64,000 bases of DNA from Candidatus Magasanikbacteria bacterium RIFOXYC2_FULL_42_28 (GCA_001784435.1 MFQZ01000002.1:12502-76501); one strand, 5' to 3'. Shown: positions 795 to 57,262, counted from the first letter of the stretch. The notes: generated by a model from the sequence alone, not told the origin. A program made the numbers and translations.

Positions 795-1748
795 TTACAC
801 CTTCAACTGCCTTCGCATTGCCAAACCACTGGACAATATGGTCAAAAGCAATACCGCCACGGCTTGGACACCGAATATAGAGAGAATATGCGAAAAATAG
901 TAATTTGTCAAGGAGAAGGCGCTGGGGAAAACTACGGCCAGATATTTATCCACAAAATTTAAGCCCCAAAATACCACTCCGGCTGTTAACGCTACACTTA
1001 CCACCGTAAACACCAATGACTCCAAAACATATGGTCCACGGATAAACCAATTGGAAGCGCCCACCAAACGTTTGATACTAATTTCCATGCGCTGACCTTG
1101 AATCGCCACCCGCACGGTGTTGAAAATAACCAAAAACGAAATAATGGCAAACAACACGGCCAGACCCAAAACCATTGTTTCCAAACGTTTGGTAATGTTA
1201 TGAATTTTATCAATCGCCTCACGATTCTCGTCAAAACTTTTGGCTTCAATTAAATTATTGTATTCCGGCAAATCCAGAGCCGTAATAATTTTTTGATAAT
1301 CATTTGGTTCGCGCGTTTTAATTATGGCCGTCGGACCAAAAGGATTATCACCCAATTCATCAAGCGCCTGCAAGACCTCGCCGTTTAAACTATGGCGCTG
1401 ACGAAATGACTCTAACACTTGCTCACGATTTAAAAGCGTAAAATCAATTACCTCCGGAAAACTTTTCACGTATTTTTGAATATCTTCAACATTTTTATCA
1501 GTGGCGTCCGCGCTAAAATACACGCTCACATTAATTTGTTCTTTTACCAATTTTATCGCTTCGTTAGTAACCACATCCACCGACCATAAGGTATTTACCG
1601 ACAACAACATTAAAACCAAAATAAACACGGTCATAAACGACATGCCGAAATTGCGACCAATGTCTTGAAAAGCGTATTTTATTGAGCGAACAAATAAAGC
1701 CATATATTGATTAGTGATAATTTCAAAATCCAAATTTCCAATTTCCAA
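795..1748 (-). CDS. ftsX: cell division ABC transporter permease FtsX
   Basis: Four-TM FtsX-like topology with a periplasmic loop. It lies immediately downstream of ftsE on the same strand. Confidence 0.85.
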   Translation of the reverse strand: MEIGNLDFEIITNQYMALFVRSIKYAFQDIGRNFGMSFMTVFILVLMLLSVNTLWSVDVVTNEAIKLVKEQINVSVYFSADATDKNVEDIQKYVKSFPEVIDFTLLNREQVLESFRQRHSLNGEVLQALDELGDNPFGPTAIIKTREPNDYQKIITALDLPEYNNLIEAKSFDENREAIDKIHNITKRLETMVLGLAVLFAIISFLVIFNTVRVAIQGQRMEISIKRLVGASNWFIRGPYVLESLVFTVVSVALTAGVVFWGLNFVDKYLAVVFPSAFSLTNYYFSHILSIFGVQAVAVLLLTILSSGLAMRRQLKV

Positions 1749-1850
1749 TTAATATCAAATTTCTAATAATAAATACCAAATTTGATATTTTGATTTTGGA
1801 TTTGATTTGATATTGGAAATTTGATATTTGACATTTCACAACACGTATTT
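1715..1850. repeat. AT-rich imperfect palindromic element, TTTCCAATTTCC/GGAAATTGGAAA word family, copy 1 (ftsE-ftsX intercistronic)
   Basis: Left arm gataatttcaaaatccaaatttccaatttccaat and right arm attggaaatttgatatttgacattt are read directly. It shares its 5' end with copies at 34298, 42571 and 57152. Confidence 0.7.
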
Positions 1851-2546
1851 ACCCTCGCTTTGATCCATAATAATTTCGCCGTTTTGTAAAGTAATAACGC
1901 GCCGGCGCAAACGATTGACCACATCGCGGTTGTGGGTCATAAGCAAAATTGTCGTGCCAAACTCATTTATCTTTTTTAAAATTTGCATCACTTCTTCGGT
2001 GTTAATAGTGTCTAAATTTCCGGTCGGTTCATCGGCGACAATTAATTTCGGCCGGTGCGCCAAAGAGCGGGCGATGGCCACGCGCTGTTGTTCCCCGCCG
2101 GATAATTGATACGGGTAGCGATTGCCTCGCCCAGACAAATTTACAATCTCCAATAACTCCGGCACGACTTGTTTAATGCGTCGTGAAACTTCACCGGCCA
2201 CCTCCAAAGCAAACGCCACATTTTCCGAAACGGTTTTTTTGGGTAATAATTTAAAATCCTGAAAAATTACGCCGATTTGGCGACGCAAAAACGGAATTTC
2301 GTCCGAACCAATGCCAGTGATATCCCAATCCCCGATTTGAATTTGCCCCTTGGTCGGCCGTTCTTCGGCAATCAAAAGTTTGGCCAGCGTGGTTTTGCCG
2401 CTACCGCTTTGACCAATTAAAGAAACGAATTCTCCGGATTTGATGTCTAAATTAACATCACGCAAAGCCACCGAAGTCGTAGAATAAATTTTACTAACGC
2501 CGTTGATTTTAATCATGTTAATAGTATACCATATCCACGAAAACAA
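1836..2546 (-). CDS. ftsE: cell division ATP-binding protein FtsE (ABC ATPase)
   Basis: Walker [13 protein letters not shown] signature [15 protein letters not shown] and Walker B LIVADEPT. Confidence 0.9.
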
Positions 2547-2589
2547 AAAAACCCCTCGGCTGGGGAAAAGTCAATATGAGTAAACTGTG

Positions 2590-2660
2590 AGCCCCCGATC
2601 AGAATCGAACTGATGTCTGCGGTTTACGATACCGCCGTTCTGCCACTGAACTATGGGGGC
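2590..2660 (-). tRNA. tRNA-Thr (anticodon CGT)
   Basis: The reverse complement folds as a cloverleaf. Acceptor is GCCCCCA/CGGGGGC, anticodon stem GCGGT/ACCGC, loop ATCGTAA and T-loop TTCGATT. CCA is not encoded. There is one A-C mismatch at the base of the acceptor stem. Confidence 0.8.
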
Positions 2661-2783
2661 ACGGCTTCGCTACGCTACGCCGTGTAAACTACGGTAGAAA
2701 ATTTCATTATTTACTGGCTAATAATAGGGCATAACGTAGTGAAGCCCTATTTTAACTCATAATAAGGCGAGATGTCAAACATG

Positions 2784-3491
2784 CTATTCAACAACTTCTA
2801 CTTTTGTCATTACGATTTCTTCTGTTGGTCGATCAGAAAAATCCACTTCACTTTTGGCAATCACATCCACCGTTTCAATTCCGCTAATAACGCGCCCAAA
2901 AATTGTATAATTGTGTGGTAACGGATAATTGGCGTGCATGATAAAAAATTGACTACCATTGGTATTGGGGCCGGCGTTGGCCATTGCCAAAACGCCACGT
3001 TCGTAACCGCGACCGTATGATTCTGTTTCCGCCCAGAGTTCATCTTCAAATTGATAACCGGGCCCGCCACTGCCCGTGCCGGTCGGATCTCCGCCTTGGA
3101 TCATAAAACCGGGAATGACCCGATGAAAAATCACGCCATCGTAAAAACCTTTTTTCGCCAGAGTTAAAAAATTTTCTACGGTTTTCGGAGCGTCGGTGAG
3201 AAATAGTTCTAAGGTAATTTCACCTTTGTTGGTTTTGATTTTTATCATAGGTTTTGTATTCTTTTTAGTAATTAAATTTGTTGGTGTGGTGGTGGGCGTT
3301 GGCGTTGTATTTTTGGCAGTGGTAGTCATCGGCTCCGGGGTTGACTCCACGACATTCTCTGGTATTGTTGTCGGTGTACCAATTATTCTCAAGTCATCTG
3401 TTTTGGGCGGTGAATAATATAATTTTATTAATCCGCCTCCGACTAAAATTACTACTGATACTCCGATTGAAGTTTTATAATAATTATTCAT
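2784..3491 (-). CDS. ppiB: peptidyl-prolyl cis-trans isomerase, cyclophilin type, with N-terminal TM and Thr/Pro-rich linker
   Basis: Cyclophilin core FHRVIPGFMIQGGDPTGTGSGGPGYQFEDE. The start is placed at the internal Met (MNNYYK), because the longer ORF to 3542 would overlap tRNA-Gly. Confidence 0.85.
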   Translation of the reverse strand: MNNYYKTSIGVSVVILVGGGLIKLYYSPPKTDDLRIIGTPTTIPENVVESTPEPMTTTAKNTTPTPTTTPTNLITKKNTKPMIKIKTNKGEITLELFLTDAPKTVENFLTLAKKGFYDGVIFHRVIPGFMIQGGDPTGTGSGGPGYQFEDELWAETESYGRGYERGVLAMANAGPNTNGSQFFIMHANYPLPHNYTIFGRVISGIETVDVIAKSEVDFSDRPTEEIVMTKVEVVE

Positions 3492-3510
3492 AAAAATAAT
3501 AAAAAATCTG

Positions 3511-6372: not shown

Positions 6373-6386
6373 AAATTATTATCAAT

Positions 6387-6466
6387 TGTCATCCCGGACT
6401 TGATCCGGGATCTCTGTCCAACGATTTTACGAACGGACAGGGATCCCGATTTTCATCGGGATGACA
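6387..6466. repeat. GC-rich palindromic element (GPE), two units head-to-head
   Basis: TGTCATCCCGGActtgaTCCGGGATCTCTGTCC-spacer-GGACAGGGATCCCGAttttcaTCGGGATGACA. The left half is the reverse complement of the right half. Confidence 0.8.
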
Positions 6467-9048: not shown

Positions 9049-9104
9049 ATATTTATGCTTCTATTGTATCGTATTTCTCGTTATTAGTAAATGATTAATT
9101 ATTA

Positions 9105-9136
9105 GACAGAGATCCCGAATCAAGTTCGGGATGACA
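9105..9136. repeat. GC-rich palindromic element, single unit
   Basis: GACAGAGATCCCGAatcaagtTCGGGATGACA, followed by a separate terminator-like hairpin at 9145-9180. Confidence 0.8.
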
Positions 9137-9194
9137 GTTAAAACAAAAAAAATCCCTCCGAAATTCGGAAGGATTTTTGAGTCAAGGTTAAAAT

Positions 9195-13402: not shown

Positions 13403-14881
13403 TCACTTAATCTTTCTTACCACCCCCGCGTACGCGTCAACTTCAACCAAATCACCTGTTTTTAAAAACTGAGTAGCAATCTTGGTCCCAATAACACAAG
13501 GGATTCCTAGTTCTCGAGAAATAATAGCGGCGTGGCAAGTAATACCGCCGTCGCTCGTGACAATAGCGGCGGCTTTTTTCATCGCCACTACAAACGATGG
13601 CGTGGTCATCATCGTAACCAATATCTCTCCTTCTCTCATTTCTGAAACTCGAGACGTTTCTAAAATAACTCTAACCAAACCCTGCGCTTTCCCCGACGAT
13701 GCCACTACGCCCTTAATTTCTTTTAAGGTTGGATCAATACGCGTTTCGCGATACTTATCAACTTCCTTGCCCCAAAATGATTTAAAAACATCTGTTCGTG
13801 AATCAAAATAAAAACCATGCATTTCATCTCTTGCCTCCAAGACACTCTCATCTGGTAATTTTCCAGTTTTTAAACCTTTGATGATTTCATCAATGCTAAG
13901 AAATACAACTTTGTCAAAACTCAATCCAAACTTCTCACCAATTGCGCACAATAATGGATAACCAAAATAATCAGTCCTCTGATAAAAGCGAACCAACTCG
14001 GTTTCAACAAAACTACTTTCAGCCAATAAATCTAATATTTTCTTATCGGCCACTTTAATTTTTAAGCGCCTAATCAATGCCTCTCTTTTTTCTCGTGACT
14101 TCTGACGATCAAAGGCCATAGTTCGCAATTTTGCTACTGGGTCACCCTTCTTGATATCATCAACAACTTCAATGTAAATATCCTCGGCAGTAGTATCTTT
14201 ACGAAGTAGAAACATGCTGTTGGCCCAATCGTATTTATTCTTAAATTCAACCAGTTCTTTTTTAACCGCCACCGGTAACTGAGAATATTTTAAATTTTGA
14301 AGTTTTAACTGTTTAATTTTTTTTGCCAAATGCAATATTTCAATTTCACGACGATAAAAAACTGACTCTCTATCAGAAAAAGAAATTTCAATCAATGTCT
14401 GCTTGGCCTCTTCTGGAGGCAGATGTCTTAGAATGTCAAAAAAAATACTTTCTAACAAATTACTTAAGCCACGGACAATATAATTACCGACCAACAAACT
14501 ACATACCGTTCTCCCGCGCAAATCAACATATTTTTTAAAATAATCTACCAAATCTTCGTTGTCGGCATTTTTCAATTTTTTATTTATTTCCACCATTACC
14601 AACGCGTTCTCTTCATCTTTCTGTCTGCGAGCATTATAAAAATCATCGAAGGTTCCTTTTTTTAATATGCGCCTAACAATTGACTTGGTATTTTTTTCAA
14701 AATCACTCTTATCATAATAATGTGCCCAATCCACATATTTATACCTTGATACTTTAAAACCAAAATCCGGGACATCTAACGTGGCTTTTTTAAGACAGAG
14801 ATAACGAATAAAAATATCGCGTGCCAAAAAAGCCCCCTTCCTTCTGGCAATCGCATACCATTTTATTTTTACTCTTGACAT
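13403..14881 (-). CDS. swivel-domain paralog 2
   Basis: C-terminus SDGGITCHAAIISRELGIPCVIGTKIATQFLKTGDLVEVDA. The N-domain carries the shared YDWANS-type motif. Confidence 0.7.
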   Translation of the reverse strand: MSRVKIKWYAIARRKGAFLARDIFIRYLCLKKATLDVPDFGFKVSRYKYVDWAHYYDKSDFEKNTKSIVRRILKKGTFDDFYNARRQKDEENALVMVEINKKLKNADNEDLVDYFKKYVDLRGRTVCSLLVGNYIVRGLSNLLESIFFDILRHLPPEEAKQTLIEISFSDRESVFYRREIEILHLAKKIKQLKLQNLKYSQLPVAVKKELVEFKNKYDWANSMFLLRKDTTAEDIYIEVVDDIKKGDPVAKLRTMAFDRQKSREKREALIRRLKIKVADKKILDLLAESSFVETELVRFYQRTDYFGYPLLCAIGEKFGLSFDKVVFLSIDEIIKGLKTGKLPDESVLEARDEMHGFYFDSRTDVFKSFWGKEVDKYRETRIDPTLKEIKGVVASSGKAQGLVRVILETSRVSEMREGEILVTMMTTPSFVVAMKKAAAIVTSDGGITCHAAIISRELGIPCVIGTKIATQFLKTGDLVEVDAYAGVVRKIK

Positions 14882-14919
14882 ATTATTTTGACTGTCAGTT
14901 AAATTTTAAATATCATCAT

Positions 14920-16413
14920 TTAGGCCCGTCCTAAAATTTTAACTAGGCCGGTGGCCGCATTGACTTCCAATAAATCACCATCGTGAATTATCCGAGTTCC
15001 ATTCATCGTAGCGATAACGCAAGGCACGCCCAGTTCGCGCGACACAATCGCCGCGTGCGAAGATAGCCCACCTTGGTCCGCCACAATCACCACTGCTTTT
15101 TCCATCGCTGGCACAAAATCGGGTGTGGTAAATTGCGCCACAAGAATATCCCCACGCAAAACTTTGTTAATTTCTTTTTTATCCATACAAATTTTCGCTC
15201 GACCAGTAATAATTCCACCAATGCAAGCGACTCGCCCTTGAATTGAATTCACCGCCGTATTGTCAACGGAATATTCTTTTTCCAATTCTTTTATTTTAAC
15301 CGGATCAGTAATCAAGGTAGTTTCAGAATCGCGTGCTAACATCGCGTAATTATGAAAACGAGCGTTCATTTCTTTTTCATCGGGTAGTGGCTTACCGGCC
15401 AAAGCACCAAACATTTCCGGAATTGATACCTCCATTATCCAATCAGGGTTAAAATGCGCGCGCTTGGCAATTTCCGCGTACATAAAACTGGCACCATAAT
15501 CCGCATTGAAAAATGCTTCCACGCGACGATTGCGAACATAGGAGTGAAGCTTGGCTTGGTCAATAATATGTTGGAAGTCAGGACGCGGTTTAATTTTATC
15601 TAATGCCCACGCATATTCATCGGCAACTTTTTGCTCGGAAGCATCATAAATCAAATCATCAATCTTTTTACCTTCACTAACCTGATGTTTCATTTCTTTC
15701 AAGCGATCGACAATATCGTCAAAATCATATGGCTTACTTGTAGCCAAACCACGGTTAATATAAGCAAACCTATCTAAATGCACGTCAATTTTTGCTGTCG
15801 CCTCGGCGGATAAATTATCCAAATCTTCATTGGCTGAAAAAAAATCTTTTGCAATCTGGGCTAATTTCCAACGTTCCTCACTGACTTCGGTCATCTGTTT
15901 TGGGTCAGTAAAAATCAAAACACATTTACGAAAATCGGGATCAGAAGCGGAAATATACTCCAACAACTTTGTTTCAATAGTTGATTCAAAATATTCATCC
16001 AAAGGATATTGCGCATACCAAGGGCCAGCCAAAACACGATACTCTTGCAATAATGGCTCTAAAATGCCAGCTATTTCCTCATTTGTTTTTTCTAACCAAT
16101 CAGTTTTCTTATATACCAAACCTTGTTTATACAAATGTTCATCTTGCTTTAACTCGCGATCGCAATATTTTTCAAACCAACCATCATCGGCTTGAGCATG
16201 CCCGATAATTTCCGCTTCAAATGGATCATATTCTTCTTGACGCCAATACATCATGTGATTTAAATAGGTACGATTAGGCATTGAAGTGCGTATGTCGGCT
16301 TTTTCCATGATTTCCTTCGTAAATGCCGAATTTATCATAAAACGAAGAAAAATGGGGAGTTTCCCCGATGGTTTAATTCTGTATTTTCCCGAACGCATTA
16401 CTGCTCCTGGCAT
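14920..16413 (-). CDS. swivel-domain paralog 3
   Basis: C-terminus DQGGLSSHAAIVSRELGVPCVIAT...GDLLEVNA. Confidence 0.7.
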   Translation of the reverse strand: MPGAVMRSGKYRIKPSGKLPIFLRFMINSAFTKEIMEKADIRTSMPNRTYLNHMMYWRQEEYDPFEAEIIGHAQADDGWFEKYCDRELKQDEHLYKQGLVYKKTDWLEKTNEEIAGILEPLLQEYRVLAGPWYAQYPLDEYFESTIETKLLEYISASDPDFRKCVLIFTDPKQMTEVSEERWKLAQIAKDFFSANEDLDNLSAEATAKIDVHLDRFAYINRGLATSKPYDFDDIVDRLKEMKHQVSEGKKIDDLIYDASEQKVADEYAWALDKIKPRPDFQHIIDQAKLHSYVRNRRVEAFFNADYGASFMYAEIAKRAHFNPDWIMEVSIPEMFGALAGKPLPDEKEMNARFHNYAMLARDSETTLITDPVKIKELEKEYSVDNTAVNSIQGRVACIGGIITGRAKICMDKKEINKVLRGDILVAQFTTPDFVPAMEKAVVIVADQGGLSSHAAIVSRELGVPCVIATMNGTRIIHDGDLLEVNAATGLVKILGRA

Positions 16414-16530
16414 ATAATTTTAGGTTAAATGTTGATTATATATTACACCTATATTTATATTACACCTTTTTTAAAATTCTGACAAATCAATTAACACGGT
16501 GGCCTGATAAATCCAAGTTATAAAAAATAA

Positions 16531-17760
16531 TCAAGAATAAGTATAGCCAGGGACAATTTGAATATCTTGAATTTCTGTTTCTTTAAGGCTATTCATTAAC
16601 GAACCGAGACATCCTGACGTTTTCGTCGGTAATTCTGTTACTATGTCAAAATCAACACCTGGATCATCACGCCAATCAAACCCGCCGACAAATTTAATAT
16701 CTTGTAAACCAAATGATTTTAGTAAGCCAGTAAATTCGTTAAAATACGTATACGGAAGCCTTGATGTGGCTTCGGCTGATATCACAAAGTAAGTATCTCC
16801 TTGCCTACCAACGCGCTTCACCCTTTCGATGGTTTGTGCCATTTTTGACTCTTCTTCAACAATGACGAGCGGCCCGCGATGTTCACTAAAAACGCGGTCA
16901 AACTTTGCTATGAGCTCCGAGCGTTCGGCTGGGGTCTTAGCATTTTTTTTACCAAATTGATCATAGTAATCCAAAAAATATGGATGTACTGCTCCCAAAA
17001 TATGCTCCGGTTCTTTTTTTTCAGTTGATTCCTGTTGTTGATTATGTTCCAATTTTAAAATTGCGCCAGGCACTTCCACCAAACCCATTGATTCATATTT
17101 TCGAATAAGCTCGCGAAACTTTTCATTTTGACGTACCGCAGTCTTAGTATCAGGATTAAGAACAGTTGTCTCGCTTGGAATACTATTCGCTAATTCAATT
17201 AAAAATTTATATTCAGTTGGTGACAATAGAACTGCATCTTCAAAAAATCTGGAAAAATGATCGGGGTCACGGTCAATGCCAAAAAGTTTTGGCACAAAAT
17301 TTTTTCCAAAATGCATGTAGATAACGAGGTCATTCGAAATACGAAACTGGCCGGGTAAATTTGGATCACTTGAAACTTTGCCGATCTCTATTATGGCTGG
17401 CACGCCCCGATCATTTCCTTTGTCTTCAAGGACAACCGCAAACGACCCTTCCAAACTATCACGATCCAATCTTGAATAATTATGAGATTTTTTTACAATT
17501 TCTACAAACGTTTTACTGATACGGGGATCTAAATTTTCCGGCTTGATAAAGCGGGTAAATAATGAACAACGACCAACATTATTTCCATCGATATCGCGAT
17601 CTTTAAGCGAACTTGAGCAGTAAACGTCGGAATATTCTCTAGTTCTATCAAATGTCCAGCCCGGATCAGGCACCGTTGTGATGGTGCCTTTTTGATCTGC
17701 CGGCGCAATATCAACCAAACTTTTTTCATCTGTTGGATGTCCAATATCACGTCTGCGCAT
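16531..17760 (-). CDS. hypothetical protein embedded in the swivel cluster
   Basis: 409-aa ORF with no motif I can recognise. Confidence 0.3.
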   Translation of the reverse strand: MRRRDIGHPTDEKSLVDIAPADQKGTITTVPDPGWTFDRTREYSDVYCSSSLKDRDIDGNNVGRCSLFTRFIKPENLDPRISKTFVEIVKKSHNYSRLDRDSLEGSFAVVLEDKGNDRGVPAIIEIGKVSSDPNLPGQFRISNDLVIYMHFGKNFVPKLFGIDRDPDHFSRFFEDAVLLSPTEYKFLIELANSIPSETTVLNPDTKTAVRQNEKFRELIRKYESMGLVEVPGAILKLEHNQQQESTEKKEPEHILGAVHPYFLDYYDQFGKKNAKTPAERSELIAKFDRVFSEHRGPLVIVEEESKMAQTIERVKRVGRQGDTYFVISAEATSRLPYTYFNEFTGLLKSFGLQDIKFVGGFDWRDDPGVDFDIVTELPTKTSGCLGSLMNSLKETEIQDIQIVPGYTYS

Positions 17761-17794
17761 ATGATAATATATATTTTACCAAAGTGAAATTAAT

Positions 17795-19243
17795 TTAATT
17801 TAAAATTCTAACAACCCCATGTTCGGCATCAACTTCAATTAAATCTCCATTTTTAATAATACTGGTAGCAAACTTAGTGCCAACAATACACGGCTTACCT
17901 AATTCGCGCGACACAATCGCCGCATGGCAAGTGGCACCACCATCATCGGTAACTATCGCCCCAGCGCGTTTCATCGCCGGCAAAGCATCGGGCAAGGTCG
18001 TGGTGGTTACCAAAATTTCACCTTCGACAATTTTCGCGTTCGCCTCTTTGGCATCTTTAGTAACAAACGCCCGACCCTTGCACTTGCCCTTGCCGGCAAC
18101 CAAACCTTTAATTTCTGCACTTTGATTTTTATGGTGAGACCACACCAATTTATCCGCCACTGCTTTGACGCGTATCCCCTCATATTTGTACAATTTACCG
18201 GAGTTAAAATACCACAGCATCCCCTGCTTACGTTTTTTAATTATTTTTTCCAGCACAAATTGTTCGCGCAATAGTAAATTTTCTACCTCCTGATTTTCAT
18301 AATACATCAAATCGTTAAAAGCAATCTTAAATCGACGTGATACCTCGCGCAAAACCCGATAGATAACTTGGTTGCTCCGCATCTGAATTTCTTTACGATA
18401 ATCATGATAAAGATTAAATTTATCCAATAAATCAAAATATACTTTAAACCGCGCCAACGGGATTTTATATTTAGCCAAAATTCTTTTACGTTCGCGTTTG
18501 ACCTTAATCGCAGTCAATTTTAAATCGTTTAATTCTCGCCGACGTGCCACCATCGCTTTCTTTTTTTCCAAAGCCACGTCCTTCGCCACTACATCAGAAG
18601 TAAGTTCGCCACTGCCATCCCAACTCATTTTCACCCAATCAAACTTATTCACAACTTTTAAAATATCCACTTTAGACGCCGACCGCCGCAATGACAATTG
18701 CAAAATTTCTTTATGATACGCGGCCACTGTTGACAAGGTCGCGGGATAAACCAAAGTCGCTAAATCTGGCGCGGATAATTCGCGCTTACTAAGCGAATTA
18801 ACCTTTTCTTTAAAAATAGTAGCGACATAATCATCAAACAGATCAACCGTGTACTCCGCATATTTAAGGTGGTCAACTGCTAGGCCAATAGCGCTGAAGC
18901 GAACTTTTAACAAATATTCCTTGTCAATTTTTTTTACATCAATTAACTTTAATTTTGACGTCTGTTCAAAAGTTTTTTTGCGATCCTTCTCAAATTGATA
19001 ATAAAGTTTTAGACGGGCGTTTTTGTTAGTTGACCATTTTTTAAACCAACCTCGAAATGATTTTTCTAAAATATCGGTTTTTCGCGCCCAAAAAAACTGA
19101 TCGCCAAAAAACATCACCGACCAACGGTTGATAATATAAGGATTTTTATCCAAAGGCAAACACAAAAAAACTAAATAATAGGAAATTGACTGCGGATACA
19201 AGTGGTCGCGTTCGTAAATTCTTAAATTATATTCTTTGCTCAT
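17795..19243 (-). CDS. swivel-domain paralog 4
   Basis: C-terminus DDGGATCHAAIVSRELGKPCIVGT...GDLIEVDA. The likely start is the internal Met (MSKEYNL), giving an ATGA overlap with the stop of 19240-19860. Confidence 0.7.
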   Translation of the reverse strand: MSKEYNLRIYERDHLYPQSISYYLVFLCLPLDKNPYIINRWSVMFFGDQFFWARKTDILEKSFRGWFKKWSTNKNARLKLYYQFEKDRKKTFEQTSKLKLIDVKKIDKEYLLKVRFSAIGLAVDHLKYAEYTVDLFDDYVATIFKEKVNSLSKRELSAPDLATLVYPATLSTVAAYHKEILQLSLRRSASKVDILKVVNKFDWVKMSWDGSGELTSDVVAKDVALEKKKAMVARRRELNDLKLTAIKVKRERKRILAKYKIPLARFKVYFDLLDKFNLYHDYRKEIQMRSNQVIYRVLREVSRRFKIAFNDLMYYENQEVENLLLREQFVLEKIIKKRKQGMLWYFNSGKLYKYEGIRVKAVADKLVWSHHKNQSAEIKGLVAGKGKCKGRAFVTKDAKEANAKIVEGEILVTTTTLPDALPAMKRAGAIVTDDGGATCHAAIVSRELGKPCIVGTKFATSIIKNGDLIEVDAEHGVVRILN

Positions 19244-21364: not shown

Positions 21365-21365
21365 A

Positions 21366-22853: not shown

Positions 22854-22855
22854 AA

Positions 22856-30837: not shown

Positions 30838-30838
30838 A

Positions 30839-34990: not shown

Positions 34991-34994
34991 ATTT

Positions 34995-36279: not shown

Positions 36280-36289
36280 AAATATATAA

Positions 36290-40594: not shown

Positions 40595-40688
40595 TGTCAT
40601 TTCGAATCCCCCGTCGCAGTGGGGTGAGAAATCTCCATCTCGACGGGATAGAGATCCCTCGTCGGTGCGAACCTCGCTCGGGATGACA
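40595..40688. repeat. GC-rich palindromic element, complex copy
   Basis: TGTCATTTCGAA...cgacGGGATAGAGATCCCtcgtcg...CTCGGGATGACA. Confidence 0.7.
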
Positions 40689-40721
40689 AAATAAAAAAAT
40701 TAATTTTTAAATTAAAAATAT

Positions 40722-41624: not shown

Positions 41625-41628
41625 AAAA

Positions 41629-41647
41629 ATCCCGACTAAGTCGGGAT
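41629..41647. terminator. bidirectional rho-independent terminator, CCCGACTAAGTCGGG family
   Basis: aaaaaaATCCCGACTAAGTCGGGATtaaattttt, between convergent recR and rplU. Confidence 0.7.
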
Positions 41648-41667
41648 TAAATTTTTCTATTGCTTCT

Positions 41668-41973: not shown

Positions 41974-41993
41974 ATAATAATATCAACTTAATT

Positions 41994-42059
41994 GTCATGC
42001 TGAACTTGTTTCAGCATCTCCTGAAAATCACGGGATCCTGAAACAAGTTCAGGATGACA
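41994..42059. repeat. GC-rich palindromic element, ATGCTGAA/ATCCTGAA stem variant, double hairpin
   Basis: TGTC-ATGCTGAActtgtTTCAGCAT-ctcctgaaaatcacggg-ATCCTGAAacaagTTCAGGAT-GACA. Confidence 0.75.
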
Positions 42060-42098
42060 CGAATAATGGGCTAATTATAATACACTTCTATGTTTTTG

Positions 42099-42566
42099 TC
42101 AATTGCCAACGGCAAAGCTATCCCCAATCTTGATATTTCGCGCCAAAACCTGCCCCGCCGGCATCTCTAAAACAAAATCCGAATCCTGGCGAGCAAAATA
42201 CACAATTAAGTCGGTTTCGGCCCGATTGGGCTCAATGGGCACGTTGGGAGCGATGTCTATTACTTTACCGTCACGAATCCACAGGATATCAATGGGGAAT
42301 TTCATATCGCGCATTACAATGCTGTGCTGGTCTTCGCTGGGAAATACAAAAAGCATGCCATCGTATTTATCTAGATTCTCTCGACCACCTAATCCTTTGT
42401 ACAAACGGGTTGATTCTTTGGCAACTAAAACTTTTAAATCATTATTATTAATTTTAACTTCTATACTTGGCCAGTGATAGGAATATAGTTTGACCACCAA
42501 AGCAAATAATATTATTCCGCCAAATAATATAATACTGCGCTTATTGCTATTTTTTTTATCAGACAT
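42099..42566 (-). CDS. DUF192-family protein (COG1430) with N-terminal TM
   Basis: GLGGRENLDKYDGMLFVFP...MRDMKFPIDILWI matches the DUF192 pattern. Confidence 0.6.
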   Translation of the reverse strand: MSDKKNSNKRSIILFGGIILFALVVKLYSYHWPSIEVKINNNDLKVLVAKESTRLYKGLGGRENLDKYDGMLFVFPSEDQHSIVMRDMKFPIDILWIRDGKVIDIAPNVPIEPNRAETDLIVYFARQDSDFVLEMPAGQVLARNIKIGDSFAVGN

Positions 42567-42570
42567 ATAT

Positions 42571-42690
42571 TGATAATTTCAAAATCCTAATTTCCAATTT
42601 CCAACCAATGCCAAAGCCAAAATATCAAATTTGTCATTATGATTTTGGATTTGATTTGACATTGGAAATTGGAAATTTGACATTATTATC
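42571..42690. repeat. AT-rich palindromic element, TTTCCAATTTCC family, copy 3
   Basis: tgataatttcaaaatcctaatttccaatttccaa...cattggaaattggaaatttgacattattatc. Its reverse complement is about 90% identical to the copy at 57152-57262. Confidence 0.75.
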
Positions 42691-43692
42691 GCCCCGTCCT
42701 ATCGCCAATGCTACCACACCCATAAGCGCAATAGCAAATAACAACGCCACCAACTTCCCCACACTTTGCAAAAACCACGCGAGTGATCCAAATCCGGCGG
42801 CGACTACATACAACATTAAAACAATCGTGCGCTCGGAAATTTTGAATTTATCCGCCAGCCAATAATATATATGTTCGCGATCGCCTTGAAAAATTGACTG
42901 GTGGCGACGGACGCGAACAATTATTACCCGAATTAGATCTAAAATCGGCACCGCCATCACGAGTAAGGCAGTGGCAATTTTACCACCGGAAATTACCGCT
43001 AAAATTCCCAAAATATATCCCAAAAACATTCCGCCACCTTCTCCTAAAAATATTTTCGCCGGTTGAAAATTAAAAATTAAAAAACCGAGAATCGCGCCAA
43101 CAAAAATTAATGCCAGTAGCGCCATATCGGGTTGATGCCAACGCTCGCCACTCGCCACGCCGTAAATGACGAGAGCCCCAATGGCCGTGATGCCGGCCGC
43201 GAGGCCATCTAAACCATCTAAAATTTTTACCGTGCTGGTCATCCCAAAAATCCAAACAAATACTAAAGCGCTCGCCCCCAAACCACTCAGACCAATTACC
43301 CCGCCCAAAGGATTGGTAATTTTGTCTATTCCCACTCCCCCACCAATTGCTAAAAAGCACGCCAAAGCAATTGCGGTTAAACGAGCAACCGGAGACAAGC
43401 GTTGTTTGTCGTCAAATAATCCAACAATTAATAATACCAAACTGCCAAAAAATACGCCCACTAAGTCAACCGGATGTAAATTTTTACCAAATAAATTAGT
43501 AAAATTTATAATATACCCAACCACCAGCCAAAAAGCCAAAAAAATCGCTATTCCACCTCCCAAAGGCACCGGCCGGCTATGCAGTTTACGCCCACCGTCC
43601 GGAATATCAAAAAGTTTTATGGTGGTGAATAATTTTATGGCACCAAAAGTAAAAAGTGCTGACAGTGCCAATGAAACAAGAAAAAAATACAT
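42637..43692 (-). CDS. polyprenyl-phosphate N-acetylhexosamine-1-phosphate transferase (MraY/WecA family, GT4)
   Basis: DIPDGGRKLHSRPVPLGGGIAIF signature and 10-11 TM segments. The last ~18 codons lie within the AT-rich element. Confidence 0.7.
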   Translation of the reverse strand: MYFFLVSLALSALFTFGAIKLFTTIKLFDIPDGGRKLHSRPVPLGGGIAIFLAFWLVVGYIINFTNLFGKNLHPVDLVGVFFGSLVLLIVGLFDDKQRLSPVARLTAIALACFLAIGGGVGIDKITNPLGGVIGLSGLGASALVFVWIFGMTSTVKILDGLDGLAAGITAIGALVIYGVASGERWHQPDMALLALIFVGAILGFLIFNFQPAKIFLGEGGGMFLGYILGILAVISGGKIATALLVMAVPILDLIRVIIVRVRRHQSIFQGDREHIYYWLADKFKISERTIVLMLYVVAAGFGSLAWFLQSVGKLVALLFAIALMGVVALAIGRGDNNVKFPISNVKSNPKS

Positions 43693-48725: not shown

Positions 48726-48823
48726 TGTTCCCCACCTATATCCATTTTACACCACTTTAAAACACCTGTCAACATTTTAAACCAAAAATTGCCCTTTAAA
48801 TTTTGGCTAAAATATAACAAAAA

Positions 48824-48842
48824 GTCCCGACTAAGTCGGGAC
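48824..48842. terminator. rho-independent terminator, CCCGACTAAGTCGGG family
   Basis: caaaaaGTCCCGACTAAGTCGGGACtgtgg, downstream of the beta-CASP RNase gene and upstream of mraZ. Confidence 0.6.
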
Positions 48843-52666: not shown

Positions 52667-52669
52667 TGA

Positions 52670-52790
52670 TAATTTTCAATTATCAATTTACAATTTTCAT
52701 TGAATTTTCAATTTCGAAATTTTCAAACACGAATTGGAAATTGATCATTGTAAATTGAGTGAAAATTGAAAATTGGACATTGAACATTAT
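52670..52790. repeat. AT-rich palindromic element, GAAAAT/ATTTTC word family
   Basis: aattttcaattatcaatttacaattttcattgaattttcaatttcgaaattttc...gaaaattgaaaattggacattgaac. Confidence 0.6.
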
Positions 52791-54597
52791 GAACGACAAA
52801 ATTCGAAACTTTTGCATTATTGCCCATATCGATCACGGGAAATCTACTCTCGCCGATCGCTTTTTGGAATTGACCGGCACGGTGTCTAATCGCGATATGA
52901 AAGCGCAGATGTTGGATTCAATGGATTTGGAACGTGAGCGTGGCATTACCATTAAACTGACTCCTGTACGAATGAGTTACAAGGATTATATTTTAAATTT
53001 AATTGACACTCCCGGACATGTGGATTTTAATTATGAGGTATCACGCTCGCTCGCGGCGGTGGAAGGCGCGGTATTACTTGTGGACGCCACCCAAGGCGTG
53101 CAAGCCCAAACTATCGGCAATCTATATCTGGCGCTGGAACAAAATTTAACCATTATTCCGGTCATCAACAAAATTGACATGCCGGCGGCGGATATTAAAA
53201 AAACCATTGCCGAAATTATTCATTTAATCGGTTGCGCCGAAGCCGATATTTTACTGGCCTCTGGGAAAACCGGCCAAGGGGTCCCAGAAATTTTGGAAAA
53301 AATTATTGAAAAAATTCCTCCCCCACCCGACTTGAGCGCCGAACCGGCGCGCGCGCTAATTTTTGATTCGGAATATAATGAATACAAAGGCGTGGTCGCG
53401 GCTATCCGCGTGGTGGATGGCGAATTAAAAAAAGGTGATAAAATTTTGCTAATGGGCACAACGACGGTGGCGGATATTTTAGAAATTGGCTATTATAAAC
53501 CAAAATTTGTTCCGGCGCAATGTCTCAAAAACGGCGAAATCGGTTATGTCGTTACCGGGCTAAAAGCCGTAGTTGACTGTCGGGTGGGCGATACTATCAC
53601 CACCTTAATTGACGTTCCCAATTTAATCGCCACAGCTAAAAATGCTTTGCCGGGCTACAAAGAAGTCAAGCCGATGGTCTTTGCCGGCGTCTTTCCGAGA
53701 GAAGGTGATGCGTATCAAGAATTACGCAATGCAATTGAACGGTTAAAATTAAATGATTCAGCGCTGTATTATGAACCGGAACAATCCGCTGTCTTGGGCT
53801 TTGGTTTTCGCTGTGGATTTTTGGGAATGTTGCATTTGGATATTTTTCAAGAACGGTTAAAACGCGAACACAATTTAGATATAGTAATTACCACCCCGAG
53901 CGTCGCTTATAATATTACTAAAATTAACAAAGAACAGCTTACTATTCACAGCCCGCAAGAAATGCCTAACCCCAGCGCGATTTTAGAAATGTCCGAGCCG
54001 TGGATGAATTTGGATATTATTACACCCAAAGATTATGTTGGCAATATTATGGGCTTGATTGCCGAGCGCAAGGGTCGCTACGTAAATACCGAATATTTAA
54101 GCACTGGTGTTGATCAACGCGCGTTGTTACACTACAAAATTCCCTTGGCATCGCTTGTTACGGACTTTTATGATAAACTAAAGACATTGACCTCGGGCTA
54201 TGCCAGCATGAATTACGAAGTGTGTGGCTATGAAAAAACCGACGTGGTCAAATTAGATATTTTAGTAGCCGAAGAACCGGTGGAAGCATTGTCAATCTTG
54301 GTTTGGCGCGATGACGCGTTTAAAGTTGGCAAAAAAGTGGTGGAGTCATTAAAAGAAGCACTCCCCCGCCAACAATTTGAAGTAAAAATCCAAGCGACCA
54401 TTGGTGGTAAAGTCATCGCGGCCGAACGCTTGTCGGCTTTGCGTAAAGATGTTATTGCGACATTGTCCGGCGGAGATTATTCCCGCAAAAGAAAATTATT
54501 AGAAAAACAAAAAGCCGGTAAAAAGAAAATGAAAGCACATGGCGCTGGTAAGGTGGAAATTCCAACCGAGGCGTATTTGGCGGTGTTGAAAAGATAG
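52788..54597 (+). CDS. lepA: elongation factor 4 (LepA)
   Basis: MNDKIRNFCIIAHIDHGKSTLADR. The ORF-table start at 52759 lies inside the palindromic element, so I use the internal ATG at 52788. Confidence 0.95.
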
Positions 54598-54645
54598 TGA
54601 AGTTCAAAGCCAATAGTTCATAGCCAATAGCACGAATGGGGCTGA
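54598..54645. repeat. half copy (one arm) of the CCAATAG family element
   Basis: gtgaagttcaaagccaatagttcatagccaatagcac. Confidence 0.5.
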
Positions 54646-54681
54646 GCGATCTATTACAAAATATAATATAAATTTGTCATT

Positions 54682-55020
54682 ATGGAAATTATTTTAAAAA
54701 GTTTAATATCGGCGGTAATAACAGGACTAATTTTAGTTGTTTCAAATTATGCTAGCCCAAAATTGGCTGGGGCGCTTGGTGGCATACCGATTGTATTCGC
54801 AGTGTCGTATGTTCTGATAACAATGCAAAACAAATCGGTTGCCAAAGATTTCTTGGCGGGGGGGGTATACGGCGCCATTGCGGCCATATTTTTCAGTATA
54901 ATTCTGATACTATTCAATTACTTATTCCCCAAATATCACTGGGTTAATTTTATAATTGCTTACGCGCTTTGTTTTTTAGCCGCGTTTGGCATGTCATATT
55001 TTACAACAAAAAATGTATGA
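54682..55020 (+). CDS. hypothetical small membrane protein
   Basis: Four hydrophobic segments. Confidence 0.3.
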   Translation: MEIILKSLISAVITGLILVVSNYASPKLAGALGGIPIVFAVSYVLITMQNKSVAKDFLAGGVYGAIAAIFFSIILILFNYLFPKYHWVNFIIAYALCFLAAFGMSYFTTKNV

Positions 55021-55038
55021 AACACAAAACCATAAAAT
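55016..55038 (+). repeat. 23-bp direct repeat, copy 1
   Basis: TATGAAACACAAAACCATAAAAT, identical to 57046-57068. It encodes a truncated MKHKTIKLP*. Confidence 0.7.
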
Positions 55039-55042
55039 TACC

Positions 55043-55075
55043 ATAAAAAAAACAACCCTTATAAAAAGAGTTGTT
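55043..55075 (-). terminator. rho-independent terminator of the tRNA-like RNA
   Basis: On the minus strand, AACAAC-13 nt loop-GTTGTT followed by T8, immediately after the encoded CCA. Confidence 0.5.
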
Positions 55076-55080
55076 TAACT

Positions 55081-55169
55081 GGTGGACGGAGGGGGAATCG
55101 AGCCCCGAAACTAGAGTAGCAATTCTAGACGTGGAGCCATCCACTCTCCGCCCTCGAGTCCACCGTCCA
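55081..55169 (-). ncRNA. tRNA-like small RNA (89 nt, encoded CCA; non-canonical fold)
   Basis: The 5' GGACGG pairs with the 3' CCGTCC-A-CCA. T-arm GGGG-CTCGATT-CCCC. The internal segment forms GTGGA-TGGC-TCCAC and CTAGA-ATTGCTAC-TCTAG hairpins instead of a canonical anticodon arm. Confidence 0.5.
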
Positions 55170-55170
55170 C

Positions 55171-55179
55171 ATTATATCA
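55171..55179 (-). promoter_or_regulatory. extended -10 promoter (TGaTATAAT) for the tRNA-like RNA
   Basis: On the minus strand, TGATATAAT ends about 6 nt before the first G of the RNA. Confidence 0.45.
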
Positions 55180-55367
55180 TAATTACAGACAAACAAAAAG
55201 AACTCCCTTGCGGGAGTTCCGAGATCGGAGTGGATATAGATTCCACGCCTGAATTGCTACTAATGATAGTATATTCTAAACTAAATATTTTGTCAATCCA
55301 TTTATCCACACCTTATAAAACACAAAATCATAAAATACCGGAACATTCCTAACAAATTCAACATTCT

Positions 55368-56534
55368 ATGTACAAACAAATAACCGAAATTTTTACTTAC
55401 AATTTTACTGTCGCCACTGACGGCCTGTATGCAATTTATTTATCCGCCTCTTGTGGTAGAAAAAATTACTTACGCACGGAACTTGACGGATCGGCTTTAA
55501 AAAGTCTTACGCCAAAAAGAAAAAATAAATATTTTAATATTCCCCCATCGTGGAACGGCAACGAATTGAAAGGGACTTCCAAAACAATTGTTTTTGTTAT
55601 AAAATTGCTCAAAGGCAATCATGGATTAAATTTCATTCCCAAAGGAAAAGTGGAAATAACAACGGAGCCGAAAATTACAGAAATAAATGATGCCGGTCTG
55701 GTAGCGCTTTTCAGTGATATTCAAAGCGAAAATAAAAATTGCCAACCATGGATTACGGTCGCACTGATTAATTTGCCTTTAAGATTTTTTGATGCTTCAA
55801 TAATGTGTAAAAAGAAATTTTTAGACAGCGACGATGTAAAATTGATAATTGATGAACAGATTCAAAAAAATCCACTCAAATCTATCTGGCGCGGCAAGAA
55901 CTGGTTTTGGCGTGGCGCGGAAATAAAAGGCAATGCTCAAACTAACAGGTTTTACCCTGACTTGCCGACAGGTACCCATTATATAGATCTGTGGTCAGAT
56001 GGCACACCAATTTTAAAAAGTTTGGATATTTTGTTGATTAGAGAGGACGCAATAAAAAGAATTCCGACCGTAGATAACCCAGAGTGGACCGGCGATTTTT
56101 TAGACGATCCCGAAGAAATTATTTTAGCCAGATTGATATTCGGCGAAGCCAATAGTGAGCCACAAAAGACCAAAGAATGGGTCGGCTGGTCGGTGATTAA
56201 CAGGACTAAAGCAAAATCGTGGTGGCCGAATACTATTCATGGCGTAATTCTGCAGGCGGGACAGTATGATCCATTTAAAACCAAGGATCCGAATTTTGAA
56301 AAAATAATCAATCCTCTTAATTATAAAAATGTCGGCGAGACGGACAAAAAAAACTGGTTCGAATGTTATGATGTCGCAAAAAGTATTATCTTAAAACAAA
56401 GCGCTAATCCCACGGAAGCTACACATTTCCACGGCGCTGGCGTCACCGAAGATTGGTTTCGAAGACACATAGTACCAAAAGGCAAATTTATTAAAAAAAT
56501 CGGCAATACTTATTTTTACTGGAGTCCAAATTAA
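55368..56534 (+). CDS. protein with C-terminal SleB/CwlJ-type cell-wall hydrolase domain
   Basis: C-terminal ARLIFGEANSEP...VILQAGQYDPF...ATHFHG matches Hydrolase_2 (SleB) motifs. The ~250 aa N-domain is unknown. Confidence 0.5.
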   Translation: MYKQITEIFTYNFTVATDGLYAIYLSASCGRKNYLRTELDGSALKSLTPKRKNKYFNIPPSWNGNELKGTSKTIVFVIKLLKGNHGLNFIPKGKVEITTEPKITEINDAGLVALFSDIQSENKNCQPWITVALINLPLRFFDASIMCKKKFLDSDDVKLIIDEQIQKNPLKSIWRGKNWFWRGAEIKGNAQTNRFYPDLPTGTHYIDLWSDGTPILKSLDILLIREDAIKRIPTVDNPEWTGDFLDDPEEIILARLIFGEANSEPQKTKEWVGWSVINRTKAKSWWPNTIHGVILQAGQYDPFKTKDPNFEKIINPLNYKNVGETDKKNWFECYDVAKSIILKQSANPTEATHFHGAGVTEDWFRRHIVPKGKFIKKIGNTYFYWSPN

Positions 56535-56537
56535 GAT

Positions 56538-57035
56538 ATGTTTTTTAGAATTACCAAAATTATTATTTTTTTTACGATTGTCGCAATTTTTGAAATCATC
56601 GGTATTTATCTATACCGCCCGTCTTTGATGATTGACACTTACCGCGGAGACGACGAATCCAGTATTTGGATTACAACCAGATATTTTGATTTTCAGAAAA
56701 AAATTTCTGATACAGATATGTACAAGTTTGACGACATCCAATGGTCGCCAAATGGCAGATATTTTTCTTATTATGATTTTGTGAGATTAGAATGGGCGGA
56801 TAAAGAATGGGCATTAAAAATTGTTGATGCCAGATTTTTTATCACAAAAATATTATTTATCGGCGATTATCATACGGGTTCTTATGATTGGCTCGATGAT
56901 AATACAATAAGAGTTTGCGCCAACGCCGGCAGTGGAGTAAGACAGTGCCGAAATATTGATATACACGAAAAACAGCCGGTGGTCGCGATAGACGATTATG
57001 GCTCTGACGCATGGCAAATGATTAAAACTTTTTGA
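56538..57035 (+). CDS. hypothetical protein with N-terminal TM
   Basis: 165 aa with one TM. Confidence 0.3.
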   Translation: MFFRITKIIIFFTIVAIFEIIGIYLYRPSLMIDTYRGDDESSIWITTRYFDFQKKISDTDMYKFDDIQWSPNGRYFSYYDFVRLEWADKEWALKIVDARFFITKILFIGDYHTGSYDWLDDNTIRVCANAGSGVRQCRNIDIHEKQPVVAIDDYGSDAWQMIKTF

Positions 57036-57045
57036 TTTATTAAAT

Positions 57046-57068
57046 TATGAAACACAAAACCATAAAAT
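57046..57068 (+). repeat. 23-bp direct repeat, copy 2
   Basis: TATGAAACACAAAACCATAAAAT, here starting an intact 31-codon ORF. Confidence 0.7.
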
Positions 57069-57143
57069 CACTTTGGACAGTAGTTGCTATAATTGGAATT
57101 TTGGCGATGCTATTTTTTACGATGTTGCCGATATTTCAGTAAA
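57048..57143 (+). CDS. small hydrophobic peptide (31 aa), not in the ORF track
   Basis: ATG AAA CAC ... CAG TAA translates to MKHKTIKSLWTVVAIIGILAMLFFTMLPIFQ. Its first 21 nt are duplicated at 55018. Confidence 0.3.
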
Positions 57144-57151
57144 CCAGGATG

Positions 57152-57262
57152 AAATGTCAAATTTCCAATTTCCAATGTCAAATCAAATCCAAAATCCTAA
57201 TATCAAATTTGACATTTTGGCTTTGACATTGATTTGAAATTGGATATTTGGATTTTGAAATT
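57152..57262. repeat. AT-rich palindromic element, TTTCCAATTTCC family, copy 4 (inverted orientation relative to 42571-42690)
   Basis: The first 44 nt are identical to the reverse complement of copy 3 (aatgtcaaatttccaatttccaatgtcaaatcaaatccaaaatc). The remainder is about 85% identical. Confidence 0.75.

Follow-up and report, generated by a model that had tools for sequence, protein, structure and literature searches.

What are the AT-rich palindromes that recur in the short spacers between genes of Candidatus Magasanikbacteria bacterium RIFOXYC2_FULL_42_28, and how did they get there? The stretch analysed, referred to as the window, comprises 64,000 nt of one contig (MFQZ01000002.1, positions 12502-76501), and an additional 10 kb of the same contig was also read. 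An earlier note on this DNA had described four copies of the palindrome and regarded them as a family similar to miniature inverted-repeat transposable elements (MITEs). The copies are insertions. They are probably members, devoid of an open reading frame (ORF), of a family of palindrome-bounded cassettes that encode in the full-length form a PF05635 (S23p) protein and resemble the intervening sequences (IVSs) of 23S rRNA, but lie outside rRNA. IVS-like cassettes placed between ordinary genes are best filed as a variant that, to our knowledge, has not been described previously.

Copies of the palindrome and their insertion sites

The element is an AT-rich imperfect palindrome of 93-125 nt built of 7-nt words. 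Four copies (c1-c4) were found in the window where the earlier note had placed them, with the boundaries refined as listed below.

1714-1838, minus strand: copy c1, 125 nt; profile E-value 2e-27; fold -30.7 kcal/mol, z -3.4
34296-34388, minus strand: copy c2, 93 nt; profile E-value 1e-19; fold -35.2 kcal/mol, z -4.8
42572-42690, minus strand: copy c3, 119 nt; profile E-value 8e-35; fold -35.3 kcal/mol, z -3.7
57150-57267, plus strand: copy c4, 118 nt; profile E-value 3e-34; fold -32.3 kcal/mol, z -3.2

A fifth copy, c5, is present on the same contig 4 kb past the left end of the window (L161, 13926-14042; L numbers denote loci outside the window). The repeat search grouped c1-c4 into one family (D3/D6) and paired the regions 42567-42684 and 57153-57270, corresponding to c3 and c4, as 118 nt of 92 % complementarity (I1). 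Direct reading of these two copies confirmed the claim of the earlier note that they are identical in reverse complement over the first 44 nt, counted from AATGTC. The identity among the copies is 72-92 % over approximately 110 nt, with a mean column identity of 72 % in the four-way alignment, in which c2 lacks one internal block of heptads relative to the other copies. The word TTTCCAATTTCCAA (up to 2 mismatches) was matched 19 times in comparison to 3.15 matches expected, a number reached by none of 100 shuffles, and the word GGATTTTGAAATTATCA (up to 3 mismatches) 6 times in comparison to 1.1 expected. A profile made from all five copies recovered exactly c1-c4 as members, with E-values from 1e-19 to 1e-35. 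For each copy the profile score was approximately 30-55 bits lower on the opposite strand, hence the copies have polarity. The rule "C-rich arm first" was dropped as an orientation signal since the palindrome reads alike on both strands, and the profile scores were used instead.

The whole element consists of two inverted arms of approximately 50 nt with the termini TGA(T)AATGTC... and ...GAAATTATCA(C), and both arms are composed of the words AATGTCA, AATTTCC, AATCAAA and TCCAAAA and their complements. Direct reading gave a GC content of 19-28 % and no GTAG head. In the orientation of the flanking genes the copies start with (TGA/GATA)AATGTCAAATTTCCAATTTCCAATGTCAAATCAAATCCAAAATC and end with TTGGAAATTGGAAATTTGGATTTTGAAATTATCA(C). 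A shared start had already been proposed in the earlier note, but c2, reading ATAAAATTTC, and c4, reading ...AATATCCAATTTCAAA, deviate from the form quoted there. For every copy the predicted fold is one long hairpin with imperfect pairing, with energies from -30.7 to -35.3 kcal/mol and z scores from -3.2 to -4.8 relative to shuffles.

As had been noticed before, c1-c4 all occupy short spacers between co-directional genes; they have the same orientation as these genes, and c5 is likewise co-oriented. Copy c1 sits between ftsE (1836-2516) and ftsX (795-1703), and its first three bases, TGA, constitute the present stop codon of ftsE. Copy c2 lies in the 5' leader of a TraG/TrwB-like gene (32363-34288). 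Copy c3, located between a WecA/MraY-like gene (42637-43692) and a DUF192 gene (42099-42566), provides the former with its stop codon and last 17 codons (DNNVKFPISNVKSNPKS). Copy c4 separates a gene for a 31-aa membrane peptide (57047-57142) from a membrane protein gene starting at ATG 57269, and at c5 there is a stop-start overlap, TAATG (L161, 13923-13927).

The overlap of c3 with the end of the WecA/MraY-like gene, reported in the earlier note, is therefore real, whereas the overlaps reported for the starts of ORF 57248 and the lepA-type ORF are ORF-calling artefacts: the first in-frame TTG or GTG had been taken, while the real starts are ATG 57269 and ATG 52789. The palindrome preceding lepA, at 52667-52758, is a different element, only marginally related (E ~2e-3). 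The repeats thus both alter real gene ends and create spurious N-terminal ORF extensions, as in the FtsX protein called at 312 aa (JGI) rather than 302 aa, whose extension enters the upstream palindrome (ORF 795-1748). Several FtsX homologues exceed the usual 302 residues by 8-30; for these the same cause is only suspected.

Contigs 100 % identical to the window come from the Rifle aquifer and other samples, and the window is syntenic with Candidatus Magasanikbacteria RIFOXYD2_FULL_41_14 at 70-80 % nucleotide identity, which identifies the organism as a Patescibacterium. Comparison with related Magasanikbacteria contigs revealed that the sites of c1, c3 and c4 are empty there, with spacers of only 4-21 nt, and that the c2 site is occupied. 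The c1 site is empty in L163 (FtsX 86 % identical, ftsE-ftsX spacer of 8 nt) and in L164 (FtsX 70 % identical, spacer of 19 nt). In the window c1 is followed by TAA, 7 nt and ATG, an intact stop-spacer-start arrangement of the presumed ancestral type, so c1 was placed exactly between the last sense codon of ftsE and its stop codon. From the comparison with L163 and L164 this junction was reconstructed at single-base resolution as TTG, element, TAATCAATATATG; the element is not bounded by direct repeats.

The locus L037 is syntenic with window positions 43694-32887; here the c3 site is empty and the WecA-like and DUF192 orthologues lie 4 nt apart. L021, syntenic with 54086-58626, has an empty c4 site with a spacer of 21 nt; its spacer before recJ contains a canonical family member where the window has a palindrome of other words. 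No target duplication is visible at c3 or c4, but the L037 and L021 spacers are too diverged to place the insertion point. The site orthologous to that of c2 is occupied in L037 and L120 by a rearranged version of 70-95 nt downstream of the same promoter, and the two species sharing this occupied site differ by approximately 20-25 % at the nucleotide level.

PF05635 cassettes sharing the arms

The wider sample of relatives was collected with the use of one exact 23-mer of the 3' arm, TTGGAWATTWGGATTTTGAAATT. It was found in at least 88 metagenome contigs and in 41 loci of species-representative genomes, which gives more than 130 contigs in total, whereas according to our calculation at most about one match would be expected by chance even in AT-rich DNA. 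There was no match among 2.9 million viral contigs. The named genomes carrying the 23-mer belong to Magasanikbacteria, Moranbacteria and Paceibacterota and to bins labelled Saccharibacteria, and also to Stahlbacteria/WOR-3, Thermodesulfobacteriota, Brocadiales and bins labelled Gammaproteobacteria or Bdellovibrionales. Some of the carrier contigs have a GC content of 50-55 %, and the element forms an AT-rich island in them. The 23-mer loci show the same heptad-palindrome layout.

The orientation is co-directional with the host genes for all five copies studied here and in 22 versus 8 cases elsewhere (p 0.016). A start codon follows the 3' arm after 5-16 nt in 32 cases; in 28 cases the arm adjoins the end of a gene, and in 14 it is located within an ORF of the opposite strand. 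In L102 a half-element, situated downstream of a canonical promoter, has its 3' arm 8 nt before a tRNA gene. The half-elements of L013 and L040 are identical over approximately 46 nt although neighbouring synonymous sites differ; the gene downstream of them is presumably glmS, judging from its N-terminus MCGIVAY.... In Stahlbacteria (L015, L032 and L122; e.g. L015, 2030-3000) a family member is present in every spacer of one operon. The central part of these copies is larger and different, and one spacer contains two tandem 3' arms. GGGGG Shine-Dalgarno motifs follow the elements of this operon. We take this operon, from the N-terminus MIEVRLHGRGGQG, to encode a 2-oxoacid:ferredoxin oxidoreductase.

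The complementary 5' arm was found 25-150 nt upstream in approximately two thirds of the 23-mer matches, and a separate cluster of matches had it 370-450 nt upstream. In this cluster, comprising L107, L050, L054, L033 and, in degraded form, L079, a gene takes the place of the "loop". Its product of approximately 120 aa belongs to Pfam PF05635, "23S rRNA-intervening sequence protein" (S23p), with E-values from 3e-14 to 5e-17, and to NCBIfam TIGR02436, "four helix bundle protein" (E 1e-22); the nearest solved structure is 2RLD. Close homologues of the protein number more than 7,900, many of them encoded by the sole gene on contigs of approximately 1 kb, and the repeats may contribute to the many contigs of this kind with PF05635 genes. 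No defence family was assigned to it by PADLOC.

Five more homologues looked up via the protein (L133, L143, L153, L157 and L160) had the same layout in each case: a heptad 5' arm, an ATG within this arm, the ORF, its stop codon, a heptad 3' arm and the ATG of the next gene, all co-oriented with the neighbouring genes. In each of five cassettes that were folded, the arms formed a terminal stem of 24-56 bp around the ORF, with the ATG inside the stem. The arrangement of C-arm, PF05635 gene and G-arm was thus seen in 10 independent loci. No transposase was found in any of these 10 larger arm-sharing relatives in a non-exhaustive survey that did not include a full genome search.

Of the five cassettes looked up via the protein, one is located between ileS and recO, one, accompanied by another small gene, between rpsQ (S17) and rplN (L14), one upstream of ligA, one upstream of holB and one downstream of rnc. 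In L143-L152 (1501-2538) the cassette and a gene for a 163-aa protein without a Pfam match are inserted between rpsQ and rplN of the otherwise invariant ribosomal protein operon, and the S17 stop codon overlaps the cassette start (TAATG), as at c5. In L160 (492-1572) the PF05635 cassette lies directly downstream of the gene for RNase III (rnc), maybe by coincidence; RNase III is the enzyme known for excising rRNA IVSs.

The window copies are tied to these cassettes by a shared coding remnant. Among the 120 closest PF05635 homologues the N-termini read MSNQIQNPNDKKK or, in longer forms, MSNFQFPMSNQ..., and the 5' arm of each window copy encodes this conserved N-terminus (MSNFQFPMSNQIQNPN-). In c1 the 5' arm, ATG TCA AAT..., translates into MSNIKFPISNQIQNQNIKFG, and the vestigial ORFs of c2, c3 and c4 translate into MSNFQFPMSKFD, MSNFQFPMSNQIQNHNDKFD and MSNFQFPMSNQIQNPNIKFD, respectively. 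About the first 12-20 codons and the 3' flank have been kept in the window copies, and the gene body is gone.

A full-length cassette consists of a 5' arm of 7-nt words running into the start codon and the first 13-20 codons, the 120-aa four-helix-bundle gene and a complementary 3' arm ending with TTGGAAATTTGGATTTTGAAATT. In such cassettes the conserved domain begins with the K-F/Y-D codons (AAA TTT GAT), and TTTGAT(ATT) is frequently present after the stop codon. The gene body was probably lost by recombination between these short TTTGAT repeats at both ends of the ORF, an event that would give exactly the apex of the short copies, AAATTTGATATTT. The arms themselves also change in length: the near-identical strains L133 and L134 differ by a 46-nt deletion between TTTAACATTTGGATTTT repeats in the 3' arm, and L153 and L154, also near-identical, by a 14-nt duplication in the 3' arm. 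These indels indicate that the arms evolve by slippage, which also explains the block missing from c2.

Relation to rRNA intervening sequences and rival explanations

In Coxiella burnetii the IVS, a selfish element of 428 nt, is inserted in helix 45 of 23S rRNA and has the S23p ORF in its loop; the 28-bp terminal inverted-repeat stem is cut within the stem by RNase III, and tandem heptamers (GACAGAT), variable in number between strains, lie directly 5' of the S23p ATG (PMC4990558). S23p-type IVSs occur in Coxiella burnetii, Leptospira, Brucella and Xanthomonas in helices 9, 25 or 45, and their origin and mobility are stated as unknown (PMC4990558). The elements described here resemble them in the complementary termini forming a long stem, folded by the window copies and enclosing the PF05635 ORF in full-length relatives, in the ORF start lying in or beside this stem, and in the strain-variable 5' heptamers. 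Heptad or repeat-bounded indels between strains, and between c2 and the other copies, a sporadic distribution and the lack of a known mobility gene are further common features. The coexistence of ORF-bearing and ORF-less forms is another, as ORF-less IVSs also exist.

In contrast to S23p-type IVSs, the elements reside between protein-coding genes or beside tRNA genes and not in 23S helices, they are built of the words AATGTCA/AATTTCC whereas GACAGAT is used in Coxiella, and they are multi-copy in one genome (at least five in approximately 74 kb). The loop of the window copies, unlike that of ORF-bearing IVSs, contains no PF05635 ORF, which is present in 10 related loci; RNase III processing is known for IVSs and is assumed here by analogy. 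No rRNA gene was detected by Rfam in the window, and none in 20 related loci scanned. The literature consulted contained no description of such cassettes or heptad palindromes between protein-coding genes or outside rRNA.

The stems are composed almost wholly of A-U and G-U pairs, followed by GAAAUUAUCA, and do not form a short G+C-rich stem with a U tract. The scan for terminator-like sites gave none in c1-c4, although ordinary GC-rich terminators occur elsewhere in the window. The view of the earlier note that the copies represent a mobile or recently duplicated element and not independent terminators was upheld: the family is dispersed, recently duplicated and insertion-polymorphic. The outcome that the note had named as its refutation was not obtained, since c5 and more than 130 related copies elsewhere were found. 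The consensus scan detected no sense promoter-like sites inside c1-c4, and the total for the four regions was not above shuffle expectation. At the gathering threshold Rfam reported only three tRNAs in the window and nothing on the copies; at E up to 1 only eukaryotic miRNA-precursor hairpins far below threshold appeared. The approximately 60 genes of the window have essentially no Shine-Dalgarno motif, and promoters of the canonical TTGACA-17-TATAAT or TGnTATAAT type lie in the AT-rich upstream regions 8-25 nt from start codons, which suggests short-leader or leaderless mRNAs. One strong promoter is directly adjacent to a copy:

34393-34421, minus strand: sigma-70-type promoter GTGATA-17-TATAAT with an upstream TG, directly upstream of c2

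Its TGTGGTATAAT box is conserved in L037, and its position immediately upstream of c2 places c2 within the transcript.

These features suggest how the cassettes may behave. They enter very short operon spacers, mostly in the orientation of the host genes. Having no promoter or terminator of their own, they would be co-transcribed with these genes. The arms would then form a stem of approximately 50 AU/GU base pairs in the host mRNA. To judge from the S23p-type IVSs of 23S rRNA, this stem is probably a substrate of RNase III. Such cutting would separate or destabilise the flanking cistrons and, in full-length cassettes, determine the accessibility of the start codon, which is enclosed in the stem.

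Several observations speak against parts of this interpretation. Neither the window nor the additional 10 kb contains a PF05635 gene, so that no partner of the ORF-less copies has been seen in this genome. The cleavage step is borrowed from rRNA IVSs, the wider sample depends on a single 23-mer, and some of the bins with labels other than Patescibacteria that carry it may be binning errors. Pairing between arms of different elements is nearly as good as pairing within one element (p 0.04, negligible effect), and word-level covariation of complementary words was not significant; taken together, these two results provide no evidence of compensatory changes that would indicate selection on the stem. 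The advantage of sense over antisense folding is small (31 of 43, p 0.02) in a test biased by the delimitation of the elements. The order of events could also be the reverse of that proposed, with the gene body entering pre-existing palindromes, since the junction TTTGAT could come from either end of the ORF.

Among the other explanations, classical MITEs would be non-autonomous derivatives of an insertion sequence with a DDE transposase, mobilised in trans via their terminal inverted repeats and leaving a target-site duplication. The short, non-coding, multi-copy, palindromic and insertion-polymorphic elements, the 92 % identity of c3 and c4, terminal inverted repeats, larger gene-bearing relatives with the same ends, and the spread across several phyla as AT-rich islands in contigs of 50-55 % GC all fit this description. 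The duplication, which the earlier note had proposed to look for, is absent from c1, the clear case, where the empty site was rebuilt to the base, and none was visible at c3 and c4 with their diverged spacers. Moreover, all larger relatives that were found encode a PF05635 protein, in one case together with a gene of unknown function, and none encodes a transposase; the arms are slippage-prone heptad arrays instead of fixed ends. The notion of a mobile repeat thus holds in essence, but the label MITE does not, and a classical MITE appears quite unlikely.

Immobile host hairpins maintained by selection as RNA stabilisers, processing signals, attenuators or protein-binding arrays, alike only because of functional constraint, are also unlikely, although this idea would account for the c2 site being occupied in two diverged species, the identity of the L013 and L040 half-elements despite neighbouring synonymous differences, the placement of 3' arms shortly before start codons or, in L102, a tRNA gene, and the orientation bias of 22 to 8. 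Relatives lack the element at three of the four sites, their genes being 4-21 nt apart; proximity to start codons is trivial given such short spacers, and the 28 gene-end and 14 opposite-strand ORF cases occur as well. The copies encode a protein N-terminus, needless for a pure RNA or DNA signal, and damage host gene ends, c3 by replacing a C-terminus and c1 a stop codon. Some elements may nevertheless have been recruited secondarily, in view of some conservation at orthologous sites (c2 and the L013/L040 half-element).

The 3' arm could alternatively act as an outward promoter (TTGGAA or TTGACA, 17 nt, GAAATT) giving leaderless or short-leader mRNAs, or as a ribosome-loading site. TTGGAA-N17-GAAATT does occur within the conserved 23-mer, distances from GAAATT to ATG cluster at 5-16 nt (8 nt before the tRNA gene in one case), and the organism lacks Shine-Dalgarno motifs. 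We regard this as very unlikely since the genome uses canonical TTGACA-17-TATAAT and TGnTATAAT promoters near start codons, no sense-strand promoter in the arms exceeded shuffle expectation, c2 and the L102 half-element lie downstream of canonical promoters and hence within the transcript, and the same arm often faces the 3' end of a gene. The short distances between arm and ATG follow from the tiny spacers; for this reason, and because Shine-Dalgarno motifs are wholly lacking, a ribosome-binding role was rejected as well.

It is hardly conceivable, finally, that the copies are convergent and not homologous products of slippage or template switching arising independently in AT-rich spacers, an explanation that was already disfavoured. 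The 7-nt periodicity, the strain-level heptad indels and the heptad palindromes of other words in the same window agree with it; the identity of 72-92 % over approximately 110 nt, profile E-values down to 1e-35, the exact 23-mer in more than 130 loci versus about one or fewer by chance, and the shared coding remnant do not.

Other known repeats share only some of the properties of the IVS-like cassettes. Correia, ERIC/IRU, RUP and BOX elements are imperfect palindromes of 100-150 nt in transcribed intergenic regions, insertion-polymorphic and forming mRNA hairpins; the Correia elements of Neisseria are bounded by defined terminal repeats and a TA duplication, and their cleavage by RNase III influences mRNA stability. 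The elements studied here differ from these in the heptad arrays and the link to PF05635, and no likeness to their consensus sequences was seen, although no sequence comparison was run. Repetitive extragenic palindromes (REP) are 20-40 nt long and usually GC-rich, with a conserved GTAG head and an associated RAYT gene of the Y1 (HUH) type. REP and BIME sequences are similarly intergenic, palindromic, free of target duplication and often co-transcribed within operons, but the elements described here are poor in GC (19-28 %), their arms measure about 50 nt, and the GTAG head is missing; no link to a RAYT gene was seen either, although no genome-wide search for such genes was made. Avd, a pentameric four-helix bundle related to PF05635, works with a reverse transcriptase and a structured RNA in diversity-generating retroelements (DGRs), which are common in Patescibacteria; no reverse transcriptase, template or variable repeat was found beside any cassette read. 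TIGR-Tas arrays were dismissed since the elements form no tandem array and are not accompanied by a Tas gene.

The origin and mobility of IVSs and the function of the very large PF05635/TIGR02436 family have been open since about 1990 (PMC4990558). The present elements are of the same kind, located between ordinary genes, with empty and filled sites, one of them resolved to the base, arms common to ORF-less and ORF-bearing forms, and slippage between strains. They thus offer material for testing the mode of insertion and the role of the protein, and they place stems of 100 nt into operons whose genes are otherwise closely coupled, among them ftsEX and, in L143, the S17-L14 operon of ribosomal proteins. 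More tentatively, the rRNA IVS might be only the best-known landing place of a larger, undescribed class of hairpin cassettes with an Avd-like four-helix-bundle gene and with neither promoter nor transposase. Such cassettes might have colonised operon spacers in Patescibacteria, Stahlbacteria and further phyla without target duplication, for example in a hairpin- or RNA-dependent manner, shedding ORF-less hairpins, with the protein serving as a mobility or maintenance factor.

Other palindromes and features of the window

Three more heptad palindromes built of other words were recognised in the window:

36290-36428, minus strand: palindrome of TCTAAAT/ATTTAGA words; -30.4 kcal/mol, z -4.2; profile E-value 1e-3 to 4e-3; possible distant relative, not counted as a copy
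52667-52792, plus strand: palindrome of TTTTCAA/TTGGAAA words in the murJ-lepA spacer (D6, I12); z -1.8; profile E-value ~2e-3; marginal relative
57677-57806, plus strand: palindrome upstream of recJ; -25.9 kcal/mol, z -5.5; profile E-value 0.4, not significant

The palindrome at 57677-57806 is 75-81 % similar to that at 36290 (I7, I8), and the latter is absent from L037 together with the adjacent gene for a 393-aa protein. In comparison to L037 (7779-7839) the window has an extra block at 34991-36408 between the HIT and NUDIX genes, comprising the heptad palindrome, the 393-aa gene (35098-36279) and a CCAATAG palindrome, so that the gene is bracketed by two different palindromes. Its product resembles a membrane thiol-disulfide protein. 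The bracketing palindrome upstream of the NUDIX gene (34991-35097, -33 kcal/mol) represents another type, built of CCAATAGTTC(A/T) words, of which a half copy follows lepA (54598-54640).

A second, GC-richer palindrome family (TGTCATCCCGnACTTGnTTCGGGATC...) was found at 6384-6426, 9097-9139, 40595-40700 and 41993-42059. The copy at 41974-42098 separates a TATTATAAT -10 box from the start of rplU and is absent from the orthologous L037 spacer. Units of GGGAATGACA, similar to this family, flank the heptad arm in L113.

The minus strand of 13403-32314 contains a tandem array of about nine paralogous genes for products of 470-510 aa (D1, D2, D4), an unusually large local expansion. In gene calls on matching contigs its members are PEP-utilizers (PF00391) with a PPDK_N neighbour.

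A gene-free stretch of 347 nt (55021-55367) is very stable when folded on the minus strand (-110 kcal/mol). ARAGORN reported nothing in it, and the sole Rfam match was tRNA-Sec-like (55083-55169, minus strand; 24 bits in comparison to the gathering score of 47). The stretch could encode an atypical tRNA or a structured RNA that has escaped recognition. A nearly identical 26-nt repeat (TATGAAACACAAAACCATAAAAT...) is present three times, at 55016-55041, 55314-55339 and 57046-57071, and the gene for the 31-aa membrane peptide that precedes c4 begins with the last of these copies. A terminator-like hairpin, CCCGACTTAGTCGGG, flanked by A/T runs, also occurs three times (D14), at 41625-41650, 48812-48840 and 59570-59598.

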